A DNA stretch of 64,000 nt from Octopus vulgaris. Taxonomy: Eukaryota. The position numbers and the translations under genes were made by a program. The stretch covers positions 5,828,001-5,892,000 of the forward strand of contig OX597819.1 of the NCBI GenBank assembly GCA_951406725.2. The letters run 5' to 3'. Shown in pieces: positions 1,224 to 55,303 of the stretch. The notes below the pieces were generated by a model that ran no database searches, was not told the origin of the DNA, and was given only the letters and a program-made list of their open reading frames with translations. The first letter of the stretch is position 1; the number at the start of each line of letters is the position of its first letter.

Positions 1224-1227
<4 letters not shown>

Positions 1228-2100
1228 CAATATAGGGTGGCAAAAAATTTCGCAATGCCTAGTGGGAAAAAATTAAATAGTCATAGACCATTTATAAATT
1301 CAACAGCAAAATCAAGGAACGGCCATAATAGGCCATTCACCCACTAGAAATAACAGCCAAGGCTTCAACCGCAAAACAACATTAATTCCATAAACCAGGA
1401 GAAAATTAAAAAACATTTACCCTGTAATTCTTTATACGATGCACCGTTTCTTCAATTGTTTAATGGTAAACTAACCTGATTAAATTAAATCAAGCTAGTC
1501 TTCCATAGGCCGATAGAATCGTCAGTAAAGAACAGCCAGATCGGAGCAGATATTTACACGAGGCACTTCTACTACTGTCTCGGCAATATCTGACCTAAAA
1601 TTTTCAAATCATCGCACTCGCGCCAAATTTATCGGCAGCAAATATAAGTCGCCGATTCCATTACGGAATTAACCAGAAAATTCATAATTAATCAATATAG
1701 GGTGGCAAAAAATTTCGCAGAATTTTTTGCCACCAGCGGCCTAGTGGGAAAAAATTAAATAGTCATAGACCATTTATAAATTCAACAGCAAAATCAAGGA
1801 ACGGCCATAATAGGCCATACACCCACTAGAAATAACAGCCAAGGCTTCAACCGCAAAACAACATTAATTCCATAAACCAGGAGAAAATAAAAAAAATATT
1901 TACCCTGTAATTCTTTATACGATGCACCGTTTCTTCTATTGTTTAATGGTAAACTAACCTGATTAAATTAAATCAAGCTAGTCTTCCATAGGCCGATCTT
2001 CTCCTGGTTTATAGAATTAATGTTGTTTTGCGGTTGAAGCCTTGGCTGTTATTTCTAGTGGGTGAATGGCCTTTTATGGCCGTTCCTTGATTTTGCTGCT
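1224..2100 (-). mobile_element. Non-autonomous HHR-bearing Penelope-like/retrozyme-like element: 465 bp unit, partial tandem copy, inverted segment
   Basis: 1224-1688 is repeated from 1689 to 1997; 1998-2099 is an inverted copy of part of the unit; (TA)n on both sides; contains an HHR. Confidence 0.8.
1428..1532 (-). ncRNA. Type I hammerhead ribozyme with long stem II
   Basis: Minus strand: ttcttta-CTGACGA-ttc...gaa-GAAA-cggtgcatcg-TA-taaagaa; 7 bp stem I, GUA cleavage triplet. Confidence 0.85.
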
Positions 2101-20622: not shown

Positions 20623-21160
20623 ATAAATCTTAGGGTAGCAAAAAATTAAGAAAAATTCTTTGCTACCAGTGATCTAGCGAGAAGAAAAAACTAGTCAATA
20701 GACTATATATTATTCATATAAAAATACAGTATATTTCTAAACACATAAGAGATGGCCATAACAGGACATCTGACTCGCTAGAAAGAGTAGTTAAACTACA
20801 AACCACTAAATAGGGGTAATTTCGAAAGGGAATGAAAAATAAAAACATTTACCCTATTTTTCTTGGACTATGCATTTTGAAAAATTATAACTTATAAACA
20901 CGAGGCATGTTCTTTATCGCCTCGTGTCTATATGTTAAACTTGACTTCCTGCTGATGAGAGCTTCGCCAATTGTAAATTATTTTATTTACGAACGATTGC
21001 TTGAAACTATGCATAGTCCAGGAAAAATAGGGTAAATGTTTTTATTTTTCATTCCCTTTCGAAATTACCACTATTTAGCGGTTTGTAATTTAACTACTCT
21101 TTCTAGCGAGTCAGATGTCCTGTTATGGCCATCTCTCATGTGTTTAAATGTACACTGTAT
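20623..21160 (+). mobile_element. HHR-bearing Penelope-like non-autonomous element with inverted arms
   Basis: 20726-20875 is the reverse complement of about 21010-21160; homologous to the 1224 element. Confidence 0.8.
20946..21024 (+). ncRNA. Type I hammerhead ribozyme, intact core
   Basis: ttcctg-CTGATGA-gagc...gctt-GAAA-ctatgcatag-TC-caggaa; 6 bp stem I, 10 nt palindromic stem III, GUC triplet. Confidence 0.92.
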
Positions 21161-21555
21161 TTATATATATATAATTTTATTGAAGCTGTAAACTTTACAT
21201 ACATACGCGCGCGCACCACACATAAGCACTCAGACACACTTACACACACACACAGTCACGCCCCTTCATCTATATATGAGGATTACATGTTACCAGATGA
21301 TATCCTCATCATGGATTATAGTTACGTAAGCTTGTAGAACTCGAATGGCACTCTCCAGTTGTCTATACTAAAGCAAGCAGTGAGAGGTTAAAGCAACGTG
21401 GCTGCTATTTCCGGAAGTGGAACTTCTCACAGACTTTTCCTAAAGAACGATAAGTCTAACAAATCAGTCGTGCTTTGATCTTGGAGTTTTTCTTCTCTAA
21501 GTAGTTTTTACTGTGTACCCTGTCACAAACCTCTATATTTCTATTCTCCCACGCA

Positions 21556-25524: not shown

Positions 25525-25984
25525 AATGAAGGGTGAAATTAATTAATTTGGAATAATTATCAATTACACCAAGTAGTCTTCGGCATGTAAAAGCCTCATT
25601 CGAGGAAAATTTAAGTAATACTAAGCTCGCTCTGATACTGAGTAGAGTTGGTGCCTTCTAGTATCTCAAAATTCAATATACAATCATTCATGATTGTTTG
25701 TATCCTGCGCTGATGAGAGAAGAAGTTTGGGTAAGGTAGAATTATCTAATTCTTATGCTTTCCTAAGACTTGATTTCGAAACGTACGTCCGTAGGTGACT
25801 TAAAACTGTATGATAGATTGCCGTCAATTCATTCTCTCTTACCTGTTTGTGTTTGCCTTTCAAATGGTGTGTTTTTACTGAGATCTCCCTTTTAGTAGAA
25901 GAAATAGCTATAATCTCTTTGACTGCTATTTCTAAATTCGGTGTGCGGTAAGGCAATTCGTTGCTAAACCCTTAATTGCTTAGC
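25525..25984 (+). mobile_element. ~460 bp HHR-bearing element embedded in giant (TA)n tracts
   Basis: Unique island between TA arrays; homologous to 54894-55266. Confidence 0.82.
25704..25795 (+). ncRNA. Type I hammerhead ribozyme, intact core
   Basis: cctgcg-CTGATGA-gaga...tttc-GAAA-cgtacg-TC-cgtagg; extended stem II. Confidence 0.92.
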
Positions 25985-27358
<1,374 letters not shown>

Positions 27359-27789
27359 TTCTCTTTTTTCTTTTTTTCTAGTTTCAGCTCAGATCTGCGG
27401 CCATGCTGATATATATTTTTCCGGTCTTGTTTCGTATACATTCGCTGCTTTCTTCCAAGGAATGTAATGCTCTTAGCTTATCTTACCTTGGGGTTGGCCA
27501 GATTGGAGCAATCTCGAGTATATCCAGCCGAAATTGCCAAGATAATCTAGAACTCGACTGAGGATGGAAAACTCTGAATGATTCGTCCTTGCTTTCCTTG
27601 TATCGTCTGTCTGGAAACTTTGTTAGCTGTTCGGCAAAAGAGACCAATAGAATAAGTACTAGGCTTACAAAGAATAAGTCCTGGTGTCGATTTGCTCGAC
27701 TAAAGGCGGTGCTCCAGCATGGCCATAGTCAAATGACTAAAACAAGTAAGAGTAAAAGAGTAAAAGGGAGCCACATCATTGTTTATCAT

Positions 27790-33977: not shown

Positions 33978-35345
33978 TCTGGCATCCAGAGTCAAAGACA
34001 TTCTTGTAGTTTAGCCGCATTGAAACTAGGTTCTTCCTCTAACATCACAGTTCTGTTGATTAGCAATTGCTCGGCACATCTCCAGACTCCCTTCTTCCCA
34101 GCAGCTTGTTCTGCTGTGATAATGTTATTGGTTTCACAATTGTACTGGAGGAAGAGCTTTAAACATGCTGTATATATAGGCGCAGGAGTGGCTGTGTGGT
34201 AAGTAGCTTGCTAACCAACCACATGGTTCCGAGTTCAGTCCCACTGCGTGGCATCTTGGGCAAGTGTCTTCTGCTATAGCCCCGGGCCGACCAATGCCTT
34301 GTGAGTGGATTTGGTAGACGGAAACTGAAAGAAGCCTGTCGAATATATGTATATATATATATGTATATATGTGTATGTGTGTGTGTTTGTGTGCGTGTGT
34401 TTGCCCCCCCCCCAACATCGCTTGATAACCGATGCTGGTGTGTTTACGTCCCCGTAACTTAGCGGTTCGGCAAAAGAGACCGATAGAATAAGTACTGGGC
34501 TTTCAAAGAATAAGTCCCGGGGTCGATTTGCTCGACTAAAGGCGGTACTCCAGCATGGCCGCAGTCAAATGACTGAAACAAGTAAAATAGTAAAATAGTA
34601 AAAATAGTATATCTTATTAAGTTCTGGCATGCAACTGGCCGGTAGTTTTTTGCCATGTGGATGGCACTGCATTTGGGGATCAATTTTGTCTCCGCCAGAG
34701 CTAACCAGTGTGGTATGCTACTGTTCCCAATGAAAACTTGCCGGTATAGATTAATAAAATATGGTCAGTAGAATGTTAACTTCTTGTACCCATATCCAAC
34801 TATCAAGTCTCTTCCAGGTGCTTTTTCATCCTGGAGTTTCTGGATCACAGTTGCAAGAATTTCACCATCAATATTTTATGTCTTGGATGTAACGCAGGAG
34901 CAATAACTTTTTCGGATTTTTTCCAGCCACAAAGCATCTTGGTTAAATTCTTGTCATCGCTTCAGATTTTCCTCCAGAAGGAGTCTATGTCTTCTCGTGA
35001 AGGAGCTTCTGTGATATTTATTGCTCCCCCTCTCATGTCTCTGTATACTGCTGCCTGGTCGCGGTTAAATCTTTTGTTTGTTGTTCTTCTTTCGGTCATT
35101 CTCTTCTGATGTCGGAGTATTTCACTGACAGCTTTTAGATCCTGCTTGAGGCTAATCAGTTTGCAAGTGAGTGTCTTCTTTTTGCTGTCTCCAAACACAT
35201 CATTTCTATCTCCTTCTTTATTTTCTGTTGGCGGGGTGTATAGTGATTTGCTTGTTTGTATCATTACATCACTGATGGTCTTCCGTAAACCAGTCATCAT
35301 TTTCTTTGTCTTCAAATCCCATGATGGTACTTTCTTTGCTATTTC
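33978..35345 (-). pseudogene. R4/Dong-type non-LTR retrotransposon, N-terminal RT region, interrupted by SINE A (34178-34605)
   Basis: FNRDQAAVYR..APSREDIDSFWRKI; LIPK..NYRPVACQN; NNIITAEQAAGKKGVWRCAEQLLIN. Confidence 0.82.
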
Positions 35346-35364
35346 GTTTTTTTTTTCTTTTTTT

Positions 35365-35757
35365 CTTTTACTTGTTTCAGTCATTTGACTGCGGCCGTGC
35401 TGGAGCACCGCCTTTAGTCGAGCAAATCGACCCCGGGACTTATTCTTTGTAAGCCCAGTACTTATTCTATCGGTCTCTTTTTGCCGAACCGCTAAGTGAC
35501 GGGGACGTAAACACACCAGCATCGGTTGTCAAGCAATGCTAGAGGGACAAACACAGACACACAAACACACACACATACATATATATACATATAAACGACA
35601 GGCTTCTTTCAGTTTCCGTCTACCAAATCCACTCACAAGGCTTTGGTCGGTCCGAGGCTATAGTAGAAGACACTTGCCCAAGGTGCCACGCAGTAGGACT
35701 GAACCCGGAACCATGTGGTTGGTAGACAAGCTACTTACCACACAGCCACTCCTGCGT
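35365..35757 (-). mobile_element. SINE family A
   Basis: Consensus match. Confidence 0.92.
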
Positions 35758-37580: not shown

Positions 37581-37970
37581 CCAGAGTCAAAGGCATTCAT
37601 GTAGTTTAGCCGCATTGAAACTAGGTTCTTCCTCTGACATCAGTTTTTTTTACTAATAATTGCTCGGCACATCCCCAGACTCCCTTCTTCCCAGCTGGTT
37701 GTTCTGCTGTGATAATGTTATTGGTTTCACAATTGTACTGGAGGAAGCAGAGAGTGAAGGCTTCATATTGGCTGCTCAAGACCAAAGCTTATTAACCCGG
37801 AACTACCAAGCCAATGTGATAAAAAATGGAGCCGACCCAAAATGCCGATTCTGTAACGTCGAGATTGAAACTATAGACCACCTAATTTCAGGGTGTAACG
37901 TCTTAGCACCTGTAGAATATAAAGCAAGACATGACAGAGTCGGCCAGTATTTACATTGGACAATATGTCT
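37574..37970. pseudogene. Chimeric R4/Dong fragments: RT piece on minus (37574-37745) joined to zinc-knuckle piece on plus (37741-37970)
   Basis: First part repeats 33978-34155; second reads AESEGFILAAQDQ..CRFC..ETIDHLISGC..RHDRV. Confidence 0.82.
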
Positions 37971-38261
37971 GCATTCTGCAAACTAATCAGCTGTGAAAAG
38001 CAGTGTTTAGAAGGATTCTTTCAAAATGTTGTTGCTGCCCACTTCCAACAGAAGTTGGCATTTCAGCTTCTTAGATGTATAATAATGATATACTAAAATT
38101 ACAAAAAAGCTCAAAACGTCTGCAATGCACCCCCACCCCACTCCACACACATTCATAATTTAAAACAAATCTGAAATAATACAATTCTATATTTAAGAAA
38201 TGTGGAATTATGTACATTATTTACACTTGACGGATATTTGTCCTCATCTTGTTTGTTGTTA

Positions 38262-38305
38262 GCACAACGTTTCGGTTGATATACCCTCCAGCCTTCTTCA
38301 GGTGT
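38262..38305 (-). ncRNA. Minimal hammerhead (family H1)
   Basis: acac-CTGAAGA-a-ggctg/caacc-GAAA-cg-TT-gtgc; one mismatch each in stems I and II. Confidence 0.7.
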
Positions 38306-38337
38306 CTTGGGGAAATTTCGAACCTGGGTTCTCAAAC

Positions 38338-39468
38338 CACCACGATTGGACTGGCCAAATACCTTGCAACAACCAACGATTGGATGCTAAGACTTGTTGA
38401 AAAGCATCAAAGACCGAAAAAATTTCACTCTATTCTGAAAGAGAGCAAAACATTCGCTACTGATCTCTTAGATACCTACCAGATTGATCAGGTTGAAGGA
38501 AATGCGCCAACTGCTGCTGCAAAGAAAATATAATTAATTGCAAAGACAAAAGCACATGAAAAATTAGCTAGCAGATGGGAACAGAAACCTCTGCATGGCA
38601 AGTATGTGACCCGTAGCAAACAAGCTGATGTCGACCAGAAACACACGCATCAATGGTTACGAAGCTCTGGGCTAAAAGCAGAGAGTGAAGGCTTCATATT
38701 GGCTGCTCAAGACCAAAGCTTATTTACTCGGAACTACCAAGCCAATGTGATAAAAAATGGAGCCGACCCAAAATGCCAATTCTGTAACGTCGAGATTGGA
38801 ACTATAGACCACCTAATCTCAGGGTGTAGCGTCTTAGCACCTGTAGAATATAAAGCAAGACATCAAAGAGTCGGCCAATATTTACACTGGACAATATATC
38901 GGCATTATTAAATCAAAACCGCTGACAAATAGTATAAACACCATCCTGAAGCTGTGACTGAGGGAGAAAATGTGTCGATTCTATGGGACTTCCCCGTACA
39001 TACCGACAAAACTATAAAAGCTAATAAACCGGATATTATTATAAGAGATCAAACAAAAAAGGTGTGTTTATTAATTGACATGAGTATTCCCTGCGATCAC
39101 AATATAGCGGTGAAAGAATTTGACACGATCAGTAAATATAAAGACTTGATAATAGAAATTGAAAAAAATGTGGCATCTCAAGGTGACTACAGTAACAGTG
39201 ATTGTAGGATCTCTAGGAATGATAAAAAAAAAGGTACTGAAACCTATTTGAAAATGCTACCAGGAAGTGCAAGAAATCGTGTTAACTGGAACGGCTCATG
39301 CAGTGAGAAAAGCGTTATCATGAATTTATTTATTTATTAATTTTTAAATACATATTTTACCTGTGAATTTGCGAGTGTAATCTGGGAATACATACAACGA
39401 ATTTCTCTGCCCTAAGTGTACGGAAAACACTCGGCGAGAAACGGAAGAAAATTTGAAGAAGGAAGGAA

Positions 39469-42377: not shown

Positions 42378-42683
42378 TTCACAAACGCGAATATGAACTG
42401 CAAAAGCAGAAATTTAATTTACTGCATCAAATGCCCAAATTGTGAAGAAATATATGTAGGTCAGACGGGAAACGCACTATTAGAACGCTCACGTGTACAC
42501 CGGCAACAGATTAGAGACCCAGAGGTCCGTCAGATACCTTTGAGTAACCACCTAGCAACATGTGGTCGGAAAATATATATAATATTTCCATTCTACAAAT
42601 TACACAGCCCAAGTGAAATCGAGAGGAAAATCAGAGAAAAGAATTTTATTGATAAATTCGAACCCAAGCTAAATAAACAATAA
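42378..42683 (+). pseudogene. Penelope-like element GIY-YIG endonuclease domain (5'-truncated, open frame)
   Basis: [52 protein letters not shown]. Confidence 0.92.
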
Positions 42684-43177
42684 TAATAATACTTAGAGGT
42701 ATTACTTCCACTGCTACGACCATGACCACTAACAACAACAACAATACTAAAGGTGATCAAGACGAAGATAGCAGGAAAATTATCTTATTTAGGGTTAAAA
42801 GTTCTATTGCCACCACCATCACCACTAGCAACAATAATTAAGGTGCTGACAATGATGATGATGACAATTGAAATATAAAAATATAAAAATCTCTGACAAA
42901 GGATATTTACAACATTTCTAAAAATAACCCAACAATTGCTGCTTCGGCCAGGGTCAAGATATAGGACTCTTGACCTGTCCAACAAAGCGTGATGCCTAAA
43001 CCAATCAGCTCAACCAACCAATCAGCTTAAGTAATTGAGTGATACTACACACTGATTGGTCAGAATACAGTTTGCAAAACCTAGCACTCTGGAGCCTACC
43101 CAGCTGTATTTATAGCACAGAATCACTCATCTTGCTACAGTCAAAAATTGTGAAGCATGACTGTCAACACTACTACA

Positions 43178-43222
43178 TGAACCCGAAGATTGCAGAATTC
43201 AATGCATGAAAGTACTAGTTCA
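43178..43222 (+). ncRNA. Hammerhead in Penelope pseudo-LTR, core U4>C
   Basis: tgaac-CCGAAGA-ttgca/tgcat-GAAA-gtac-TA-gttca. Confidence 0.78.
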
Positions 43223-43399
43223 ATCAGAATGAATATTTAACATTCTACTATTTCATTTTATTTTATTCAATTATAATATATTATCTTATAATATATCATT
43301 ATAAGATTGTAAATAAAACGTGAAAATCAGACAAGGTTGGAATTCTTTTTATTAATATATTCTTCTATACACAATCACACACACCCATATATATATATA

Positions 43400-47204: not shown

Positions 47205-48038
47205 TATATATGGGTGTGTGTGATTGTGTATAGAAGAATATATTAATAAAAGGAATTCCAACCTTGTCTGATTTTCACGTTTTATTTACAATCTTATAAT
47301 GATATAATATAAGATAATATAATATAATAAAATAAAATAATAGAATGTTAAATGTTCATTCTGATTGACCTAGTACTTTCATGCATTAAATTATGCAATC
47401 TTCAGGTTCATGTAGTAGTGGTCACAGTCATGCTTCACGATTTTTGACTGTAGTGAGATGGTTAAATCTGTGCCTTAAATAGGGCTGTGTGGGCTCCAGA
47501 TTGCTAGGTTTTGCAAACTGTATTCTGACCAATCAGTGTGTAGCATCACTCAATTACTTAAGCTGATTGGTTGGTTTAGGCGTCACGCTTTGTTGAACAT
47601 GTCAAGAGTCCTGTATCTTAACCCTGGCCGAGGCAGCAATTGTTGGACTATTTTTAGAAATGTTGTAAATAGCCTTTGTCAGGGATTTCTATATGTCAAT
47701 TGTCATCATCATCATCATTGCCAGCACCTTAATTATTGTTGCTAGTGGTGATGGTGGTGGCAATATAACTTTTAACTCTAAATAAGATAATTTTCCTGCT
47801 ATCTTCGTGTTGATCACCTTTAGTATTGATGTTGATGTTAGTGGTCATGGTCGTAGCAGTAGAAGTAGTACCTCTATGTATTATTATTATTGCTTATTTA
47901 GCTTGGGTTCGAATTTATCAATAAAATTCTTTTCTCTGATTTTCCTCTCGATTTCACTCGGGCTGTGTAATTTGTAGAATGGAAATATTGTATATATTTT
48001 CCGACCACATGTTGCTAGGTGGTTACTCAAAGGTATCT
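47205..48038 (-). mobile_element. Second copy of the Penelope-like 3' end, inverted relative to 42378-43390
   Basis: [30 protein letters not shown] plus the same pseudo-LTR. Confidence 0.9.
47366..47410 (-). ncRNA. Hammerhead in Penelope pseudo-LTR, intact core, stem I mismatch
   Basis: tgaac-CTGAAGA-ttgca/tgcat-GAAA-gtac-TA-ggtca. Confidence 0.8.
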
Positions 48039-48360
48039 TACATGTGGTCGGAAAATATATGAATGAAGAAAGTAGTGTTTTGACACTTAAAAATGACAAC
48101 TGATGAGATTAAAAATTATTTTAACAGTATTTTGTGGCATAGAAAATCATAAATTTATTCTGTACGAATACATTTTTCACAGCTAAATATTTATAATCGA
48201 ATATAAATTCCTTAGTTACTATAATTTATTAGTTTCTTTTGCATATTCTTAGTTTATGCATGTGTATGCAAATATAGTATTGGTATATCCCATTCATGTT
48301 CATTAGAAATTAAATAAATAAAGAATTTTGACATCTACGAATATTTATTTCCCCCCACTG

Positions 48361-50639: not shown

Positions 50640-51215
50640 TGAACACCATCATAAAGAGTGATGCTAAGGGGATCTGCCCGCTATACAGGAGTAAATCCTG
50701 GAACAGGATACATAAGATACATAACGCCAACAAAAATTACCAGAGTGTCATGCTCGTTGATGCTACCCCTTGCGGCGAACTAGCATACCTTTTTAGAAAA
50801 ACATTAAAGTAGTAGAATGGCCTGGTGCTCCTTTAAAATCTCTGAACTGCAATACCTACCCCTTTGACAAGTCCCCCTGTACGGAGTACAATTGTGTTGT
50901 ATGTAGGATGAAACAACAGGTTAACTGTAAGGTTAGGAATGTAGTGTATAGCTTACGATGTACTGAGGGACGGTGCAGAAACATGACAACTACCTACAAA
51001 GGAGAGACTGCACGCAGCATAGGAAAGCGTATAGGTGAACATTGGCGAGAGCTCGTCAGTGCTCTAACATGCTCAAGCAGAATATGGAGACTCGATTAAT
51101 AGCATAGAGGTTAAAGTACTATCGACACATAAAACTGACATGACATTTAGATAGATTACAGAAGCCACACACATAACAGTAAACAGAGCGAGCCTCAGTA
51201 GAAAACATGAATCGA
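50640..51215 (+). pseudogene. Second, unrelated Penelope-like GIY-YIG remnant (Naiad-like by motif recall)
   Basis: PLYRSKSW, VDATPCGELA, PF..C..C.VC..CKVRNVVYSLRC..YKGETARSIGKRIGEH, ITEATHI; frameshifted. Confidence 0.78.
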
Positions 51216-54831: not shown

Positions 54832-54895
<64 letters not shown>

Positions 54896-54991
54896 CTCTG
54901 ATACCATGAGTTGAGGTCATATCTTCTAGTGCCTTCAAATTTAATACACAATTATTAATAATTGAGCCGCAATTATCTATAATTGAAGAGT

Positions 54992-55082
54992 CCTACGCTG
55001 AGGAGGAAAATAGTCAGGTAAGACATAATTATTTAATTTTTATGCTCTACAATGACTTAATTCTGAAACGTGCGTCCGTAGG
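54992..55082 (+). ncRNA. Type I hammerhead ribozyme, intact core, in element 54894-55266
   Basis: cctacg-CTGAGGA-ggaa...ttct-GAAA-cgtgcg-TC-cgtagg. Confidence 0.9.
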
Positions 55083-55264
55083 TAACTTAATATAGAATGA
55101 TTTCCGTCATTTCCTTCTCTTTTGCCTGCGTCGTTTGTTTTTTAAGTGGTTTGGTTTTACTGGGATCCCCCTTTTAAGTAGAAAGAATAGGCAAAACTTT
55201 TTGACTGCTATTTCTAAATTTGGTGTGTGGTGAGGCAAATCGTTGCTGAACCCTTAATTAATTA

Positions 55265-55303
<39 letters not shown>

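Follow-up and report, generated by a model that had tools for sequence, protein, structure and literature searches.

In Octopus vulgaris (genome size 2.8 Gb), non-coding tandem repeats that each carry a hammerhead ribozyme share, 3' of the ribozyme, a domain whose pairings covary across clades and onto which both fixed ends of the genomic insertions map. Covariation beyond phylogenetic expectation, the criterion by which a structured RNA motif is recognised, is present, and we are highly confident that the RNA fold is conserved. With lesser confidence, we consider it probable that the 3' part of this fold sets where copying starts, by binding a Penelope-type reverse transcriptase (RT) supplied in trans at two sites. 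The elements belong to the retrozymes, a class that is itself known; the new part is the covarying domain tied to both insertion ends. A literature search, outside which most subscription papers and supplements lay, found neither a description of these families nor a paper on covarying structure in retrozymes beyond the ribozyme.

Two-armed retrozyme insertions in TA repeats

The stretch of DNA analysed here (64,000 nucleotides, hereafter the window) contains two of these elements (Table 1). The one at 20623-21165, an aged copy of a ~480-nt type I hammerhead repeat, i.e., a non-LTR retrozyme, has inserted into a TA microsatellite with two arms and is flanked by TA runs. The sequence following the predicted cut recurs as its reverse complement in the left part (20623-20876), and positions 20709-20875 and 21009-21175 form a 167-bp inverted repeat (93%), which is a product of the insertion geometry and lies outside the RNA fold. 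The element at 1224 has the same build, with the ribozyme on the minus strand; it belongs to clade A and the 20623 element to clade B, and the two are 62% identical (276 of 447 columns).

Hammerheads were found by a core-and-stems scan built for this analysis, not by Rfam, which at gathering thresholds gave no matches within the 64-kb window. A core with three stems is present in both window elements and in 74 of the 78 scan matches assigned to clades A or B. Neither 20650-21165 nor 1224-2112 contains a stop-free frame of 100 amino acids, the RT/GIY-YIG reading frame expected of an autonomous Penelope-like element (PLE) is absent from the element, and PLE protein matches near retrozyme loci are separate insertions. 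Those traits of metazoan non-LTR retrozymes that could be tested were all found, namely (i) a hammerhead in each unit; (ii) tandem, dispersed monomers; and (iii) lack of coding capacity, as was the geometry expected of a Penelope-mobilised element (a partial tandem plus an inverted truncated copy, a tail and a microsatellite target).

Table 1. Features of the two retrozyme insertions in the window
Feature	Positions	Strand	Description
Clade A insertion, left arm	1224..1997	-	Partial tandem of ~484-nt units; distal end ~1224; intact 3' domain 1692-1859; first unit with P11 deletion
Type I hammerhead motif, clade A copy	1428..1532	-	Core 1525, predicted cut 1435
Clade A insertion, right (inverted) arm	1996..2100	+	Ends in TA run at proximal fixed end (~2097-2100)
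Clade B insertion, left arm	20623..20876	-	3' half of clade B monomer, from hammerhead stem III to distal fixed end (~20623), which adjoins TA run
P11 terminal hairpin	20634..20667	-	Distal insertion end ~8-15 nt 3' of P11
P6 long-range helix	20668..20807	-	Strands 20802-20807 and 20668-20673; local alternative partner for 5' strand equally supported
P8, the long-range CTAG helix of the first-pass annotation	20674..20781	-	Strands 20774-20781 and 20674-20681
P10 small hairpin	20692..20705	-	3' of proximal end site
Proximal fixed end, template position	20723..20729	-	Predicted unpaired linker within P8 loop in most clades
P9 hairpin	20750..20771	-	
Clade B insertion, right arm	20871..21165	+	Sense-strand monomer piece, 5'-truncated; ends in TA run at proximal fixed end (~21157-21162)
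P4 hairpin upstream of ribozyme	20888..20937	+	Outer stem covaries; inner GCCTCG stem (20898-20906 with 20919-20927) does not
Type I hammerhead motif	20946..21024	+	Stem I 20946-20951/21019-21024; core 20952; GAAA 21003; palindromic stem III; predicted cut after 21018

Genome searches identified clades A and B as tandem-repeat families with monomers of ~475-490 nt. Head-to-tail periods range from 450 to 492 nt, arrays lie on many contigs, and exact patterns gave 2974 and 1046 matches, with none in reversed controls. Clade D and further subfamilies were added by pattern and DNA searches; clade E, with a 450-nt monomer and 53-64% identity, came to light once the set of pairs analysed below had been fixed; and clade H was found with a covariance model built from an alignment of 34 copies. 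One copy of a further family scored 27 bits in covariance-model searches. Chimeras between clades A and B, proposed early, proved to be plain cross-matches. In assembled contigs from four runs, representing four organisms, all 30 bins of the clade A stretch are covered, a result that concerns presence only and not strand, level or ends.

Several features of individual families were also recorded. The hammerhead core CUGAUGA is replaced by CCGAUGA in all five clade D subfamily consensuses and in several clade H copies (loci L155, L173-L202 and L320), and subfamily D3 occurs in tandem copies despite missing part of stem II. Retrozyme copies of different families are nested in each other's flanking TA runs (L247, ~1500-1700; L044, ~890-1400), and short tandem stutters of the sequence just upstream of an end site occur at two loci (L269, 1500-2000; L337).

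Covariation of the fold across clades

The clade A and clade B consensuses, folded separately, gave matching layouts, in which a long helix, P1, encloses the ribozyme and closes a 5' domain, and P6, P8, P9, P10 and the terminal hairpin P11 make up a 3' domain; the loop closed by P8 contains P9, P10 and, between them, the proximal end site. The minus strand of 20623-20876 has a folding z-score of -5.1, with none of 200 shuffles as stable. The covariance model scores 159 bits at 20624-20811 on this left arm, a copy that is itself part of the model.

The first-pass annotation had claimed that the 20623 and 1224 elements keep the same pairings with compensatory changes. All words quoted for the 20623 element are present (GGTAGCAAA at 20634 with TTTGCTACC at 20659, CTAGCGAG at 20674 with CTCGCTAG at 20774 and, in a third hairpin, ACACGAGGC at 20898 with GCCTCGTGT at 20919), as is the long-range pair CTAGTGGG/CCCACTAG of the 1224 element (1259/1340 and 1741/1822). 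For the terminal hairpin of the latter the claim stands in one unit: GGTGGCAAAA occurs at 1236 and 1701 but its partner, TTTTGCCACC, at 1725 only, the unit starting at 1224 having lost the 3' strand, so that the intact hairpin (1701-1734) is that of the second unit. The first two pairings were quoted on the plus strand, which in 20623-20876 and 1224-1997 is antisense to the ribozyme RNA, the strand being fixed by the hammerhead cores at 20952 (plus) and 1525 (minus); on the ribozyme RNA, both helices sit 3' of the cut. The shared pairings are real and extend beyond the two elements, and for each of the three changes cited, another subfamily has a G-U intermediate when read on the ribozyme strand. 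The GCCTCGTGT hairpin, however, is conserved sequence without covariation: in 13 subfamily consensuses its GCCTCG stem shows no compensatory changes, the 3' strand being nearly invariant and the 5' strand breaking pairs in four of the 13, and the motif is absent from clade E. In the outer stem below GCCTCG, six of 11 pairs occur as at least two Watson-Crick types.

The 13 subfamily consensuses, built from 3-22 loci each and 62-96% identical, were scored for 71 pairs that had been hand-curated on the same alignment that first scored them. Of the resulting cells, 95.8% pair, a level that matched random column pairs, reaching at most 84%, do not attain. At least two Watson-Crick types occur in 16 of the 71 pairs, compared with 7.5-9.3 in matched random column pairs (p 0.004-0.018). 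In the 3' domain alone, 97.9% of cells are paired and 6/37 pairs are compensated (4.3-4.9 under the null, hence no excess); 5'-domain helices, far from the ends, covary too (10/34 pairs).

That no covariation would appear in a larger alignment had been named in advance as the outcome speaking against a conserved structured RNA scaffold. In 34 natural copies from four clades, both window copies included, we found both sides changed in 14 of 34 pairs, against 8.3 +/- 1.5 in shuffled data (0/500), and pairing in 96.1% of cells, a figure that lies at 32-54% in slid controls; within this alignment the clade E rows are misaligned in P11. Together with two sets gathered later and an excess of G-U over A-C states (see below), this supports the proposed scaffold. 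In clade E, which was held out and aligned by sequence only, 12 of 14 changed 3'-domain pairs are kept (5.7 expected, p 0.0005); against other references the numbers are 13/15 and 17/19 (6.8 and 8.4 expected), and the clade adds seven new pair types. Over all 71 pairs the clade E test is weak (p 0.04-0.28), as a register shift in the 5' domain prevents its alignment by sequence. The other set consists of further old copies: 40 regions chosen among the first 100 of the 1046 pattern matches yielded 42 segments, 25 of them with both P8 strands. In these 25, P8 positions 5-8 are Watson-Crick paired in 86 of 100 cases, compared with 56 after shuffling (maximum 75 in 10,000).

Furthermore, the clade H consensus (50 bits) adopts the same layout when folded by itself, although its P9, P10 and P11 sequences differ. 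Single-sequence folds tested on another clade gave a mixed outcome, with p<0.05 in five of nine sense and two of six antisense comparisons. Covariation across clades is shown for P8, P9 and P11 as well as for several 5'-domain helices. The 5' strand of P6 (alignment A1, columns 8-13) can pair with either a local or a long-range partner, though not with both at once, and the two alternatives are both kept across clades and score equally; P6 is therefore either uncertain or a switch, and an RNA switch involving this strand is possible.

Insertion ends, coding elements and family C

Across five locus sets, two intervals ~100 nt apart, covering ~14% of the monomer, contain 196 of 208 outer 3' ends, one site lying inside the 3' domain and the other just after it. 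The two arms of an insertion face outward, one ending just 3' of P11 and the other ~100 nt earlier inside the P8-closed loop. Among two-armed loci, 59 of 67 have one proximal and one distal end and none has two alike; some loci were picked by queries spanning the 3' half, a choice that biases the sample towards distal ends without affecting the pairing rule. Taken separately, 34/40 of the clade A and ~75/85 of the clade B 3' ends lie at the two sites, while clade A 5' ends are scattered. Clade B 5' ends are denser near the ribozyme, a pattern toward which the search queries are biased, and from which nothing is inferred.

On the predicted fold, the linker joining P9 to P10 contains the proximal end, and the distal end comes after P11. 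The proximal ends of clade A stop sharply at a template position that is no TA run. Clade B has an extra ~18 nt between P9 and P10, and its proximal end lies 23-27 nt from P9 (8-18 nt in clades A, D and E); despite this addition, its distance from P10 stays at ~11-21 nt. A CT-N2-3-ATT word, spotted post hoc, is common to the surroundings of both ends.

The first-pass annotation had also suggested that the scaffold may be the signal recognised by a partner RT. This reading is supported indirectly by the mapping of both fixed insertion ends to the domain in every clade examined; on the other side, no coding PLE that we examined carries the domain. The genome contains intact-looking PLEs, PLE-1 and PLE-2, that also end in TA runs at two sites, with a spacing of about 46 and 65 nt, respectively, versus ~100 nt in retrozymes. 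The covariance model scored no more than 11.7 bits on the PLE-1 and PLE-2 loci and no more than 13.5 bits on six other PLE fragments outside nearby retrozyme copies, a small sample in which some elements lack their ends. PLE-1 has a 4271-bp tandem unit with two overlapping frames (~430 and 775 amino acids), the second of which contains RT and GIY-YIG domains and the first of which has no Pfam match. The core scan found no hammerhead in it, its ends are 46 nt apart, and it has no likeness to clades A or B. PLE-2, whose terminal repeat has a hammerhead-like motif with C at the usual A9 position in most copies, matched neither the profile nor the model.

Fragments of PLE-1, which is very young and abundant (17001 first-look candidates), lie in the window at 42380-43330 and 47240-48050 (also L121 and L122), and the PLE-2 lineage, which has a cysteine-rich linker before the endonuclease, at 50797-51099 (also L235-L246). 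Broken frames at 37660-39340 and 34962-35528 resemble a non-LTR retrotransposon (weak zf-RVT match below the cut-off).

The window also contains two copies of a second, young hammerhead repeat with a 585-nt unit, family C (25540-25990 and 54880-55270; window positions 25710 and 54998), the first of which lies beside ~1.2 kb of nearly pure TA repeat (26119-27366). Family C (1969 first-look candidates) has no significant profile match to the clades. Nevertheless, 29 of its 31 ends are at two sites ~90-100 nt apart, it folds into the same predicted layout, and the covariance model aligns family C weakly, placing its ends at corresponding positions (16 bits, E 0.07-0.09). These results are suggestive only of a 3'-domain architecture that family C would share with the clades.

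Competing explanations and relation to known systems

Since relatives keep the same predicted fold at both places where insertions end, the fold is likely a handle for a borrowed RT, and as no coding element examined has the domain, we infer the enzyme from the geometry of the insertions. By analogy to published retrozymes (PMC7229834), the monomer RNA would be transcribed, self-cleave and probably circularise; a Penelope-like RT/GIY-YIG protein would then bind it through the 3' domain, nick both strands of a TA repeat and prime cDNA at two sites, leaving two arms that face outward and join at their truncated 5' ends. The fold would be kept because source elements are selected for being copied, and inserted copies would decay regardless of it. 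We propose only tentatively a more specific model, in which the P8 loop (P9, open linker and P10) and P11 would form a two-site loading platform for a dimeric Penelope-type RT, common to many retrozyme families, family C among them, and absent from coding elements; given that absence, these parasites would have evolved an RNA handle of their own.

The same fold might instead be selected for the life of the RNA (a stable circle, ligation, free folding of the ribozyme or escape from decay), with the ends set by local sequence or enzyme geometry. Such an explanation, the chief rival but one that we consider somewhat unlikely, accommodates the covariation of the 5'-domain helices noted above, the lack of the domain in the coding elements examined, and the sequence around the proximal end that clades B and E have in common; published retrozyme circles are also predicted, in the accessible part of that report, to be highly self-paired (PMC7229834). 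Because structure extends over the entire monomer, local sequence may account for the association of fold and ends. However, both ends occupy the same structural positions in clades A, D, B and E (and, as judged by match ends, in H), family C has the same predicted topology and end positions with no significant sequence match, and general stability is not expected to keep one multiloop layout with an open linker of ~25-45 nt. The remaining alternatives concern the molecule and process that produced the pairings, on which the wobble states bear. Fixed subfamily states, read on the ribozyme strand, comprise G-U and A-C at 28:7 overall and 13:0 in the 3' domain, in contrast to singleton changes in old copies (45:46; Fisher p 0.002 versus fixed states). 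Automatically picked helices, which included spurious ones and served as a strand-neutral check only, gave 38:17, and base composition alone predicts a G-U excess of ~29:19. In the 25 old single copies, A-C outnumbers G-U 8 to 2, a ratio that decay after insertion could produce. By shuffle z-scores the two strands are indistinguishable, sense and antisense folding equally far below shuffles.

Watson-Crick helices form on either strand and invariant words such as GCCTCG do not covary, as would be expected if the structure acted in DNA, as single-stranded cDNA or a cruciform presented to the endonuclease, or if the invariant words were promoter elements; indeed, the non-covarying words may have a promoter role. 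Yet wobble states work only on the ribozyme strand and become A-C mismatches in first-strand cDNA, at the 13:0 ratio of the 3' domain, and a double-stranded promoter needs no pairing, so we regard this explanation as improbable. A mechanical origin of the compensatory changes, through template switching or repair between short inverted repeats without selection on RNA, was already disfavoured and appears to us the least credible, and very improbable indeed. Although the elements are written with inversions and fold-backs, and ten of the 16 double changes lack an intermediate in the sample, copying yields perfect complements, whereas G-U pairs are fixed across whole subfamilies (P11, all five of clade D); moreover, the 16 compensated pairs include six with a G-U bridge and one with an A-C bridge, and the helices are of 5-11 bp with strands up to 300 nt apart.

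Our preferred reading, a 3' fold used by a Penelope-type RT, can be compared with three published systems, each described here as far as the accessible text of the reports extends. Metazoan non-LTR retrozymes (Cervera and de la Pena 2020, PMC7229834; Li, Clavereau and Pollet 2026, bioRxiv 10.64898/2026.07.22.740005) are likewise non-coding tandem monomers of a few hundred nucleotides with one type I hammerhead each, present in many dispersed copies of low GC and co-occurring with PLEs. In contrast to the present analysis, that text presents single-sequence folds or phylogeny and describes neither cross-family covariation outside the ribozyme nor fixed 3' ends nor a two-armed geometry. Of 57 retrozyme families in Xenopus, 24 matched known elements, mostly PLE ends (10.64898/2026.07.22.740005), whereas here no examined coding PLE matches. 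Canonical EN+ PLEs with pLTR insertions (Craig et al. 2021, PMC8557442) also combine partial tandems with an inverted copy truncated at the 5' end, can have a tail at one end, target TA microsatellites and carry a hammerhead in the terminal repeat; the octopus monomer differs in having no RT/GIY-YIG frame and a tail of ~100 rather than 30-40 nt. The closest parallel to two fixed start points, an idea already contained in that work, comes from the anole Poseidon element PAc in vitro (Frangieh et al. 2024, PMC11167929), in which RT starts at two internal sites downstream of the hammerhead that match genomic ends, both strands of an AT-rich target are cut, and a start lies in a stem-loop. Unlike the retrozymes, PAc is coding and its sites are 30-40 nt apart within the ORF start; in the accessible text, its RNA determinant was narrowed only to a 172-nt region, without covariation analysis (PMC11167929). 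How retrozymes recruit an enzyme is, in the corresponding part of PMC7229834, treated as a hypothesis only.

The families described here address how Penelope-like RTs recognise their RNA and why they start inside it. These enzymes are the closest retroelement relatives of telomerase. A non-coding family of at least six clades provides a covariation-backed model of ~170 nt, natural compensatory variants and two mapped start sites. With a model this short, its natural variants and the two sites, both RNA recognition and the recruitment of an enzyme by retrozymes become directly testable with short RNAs.
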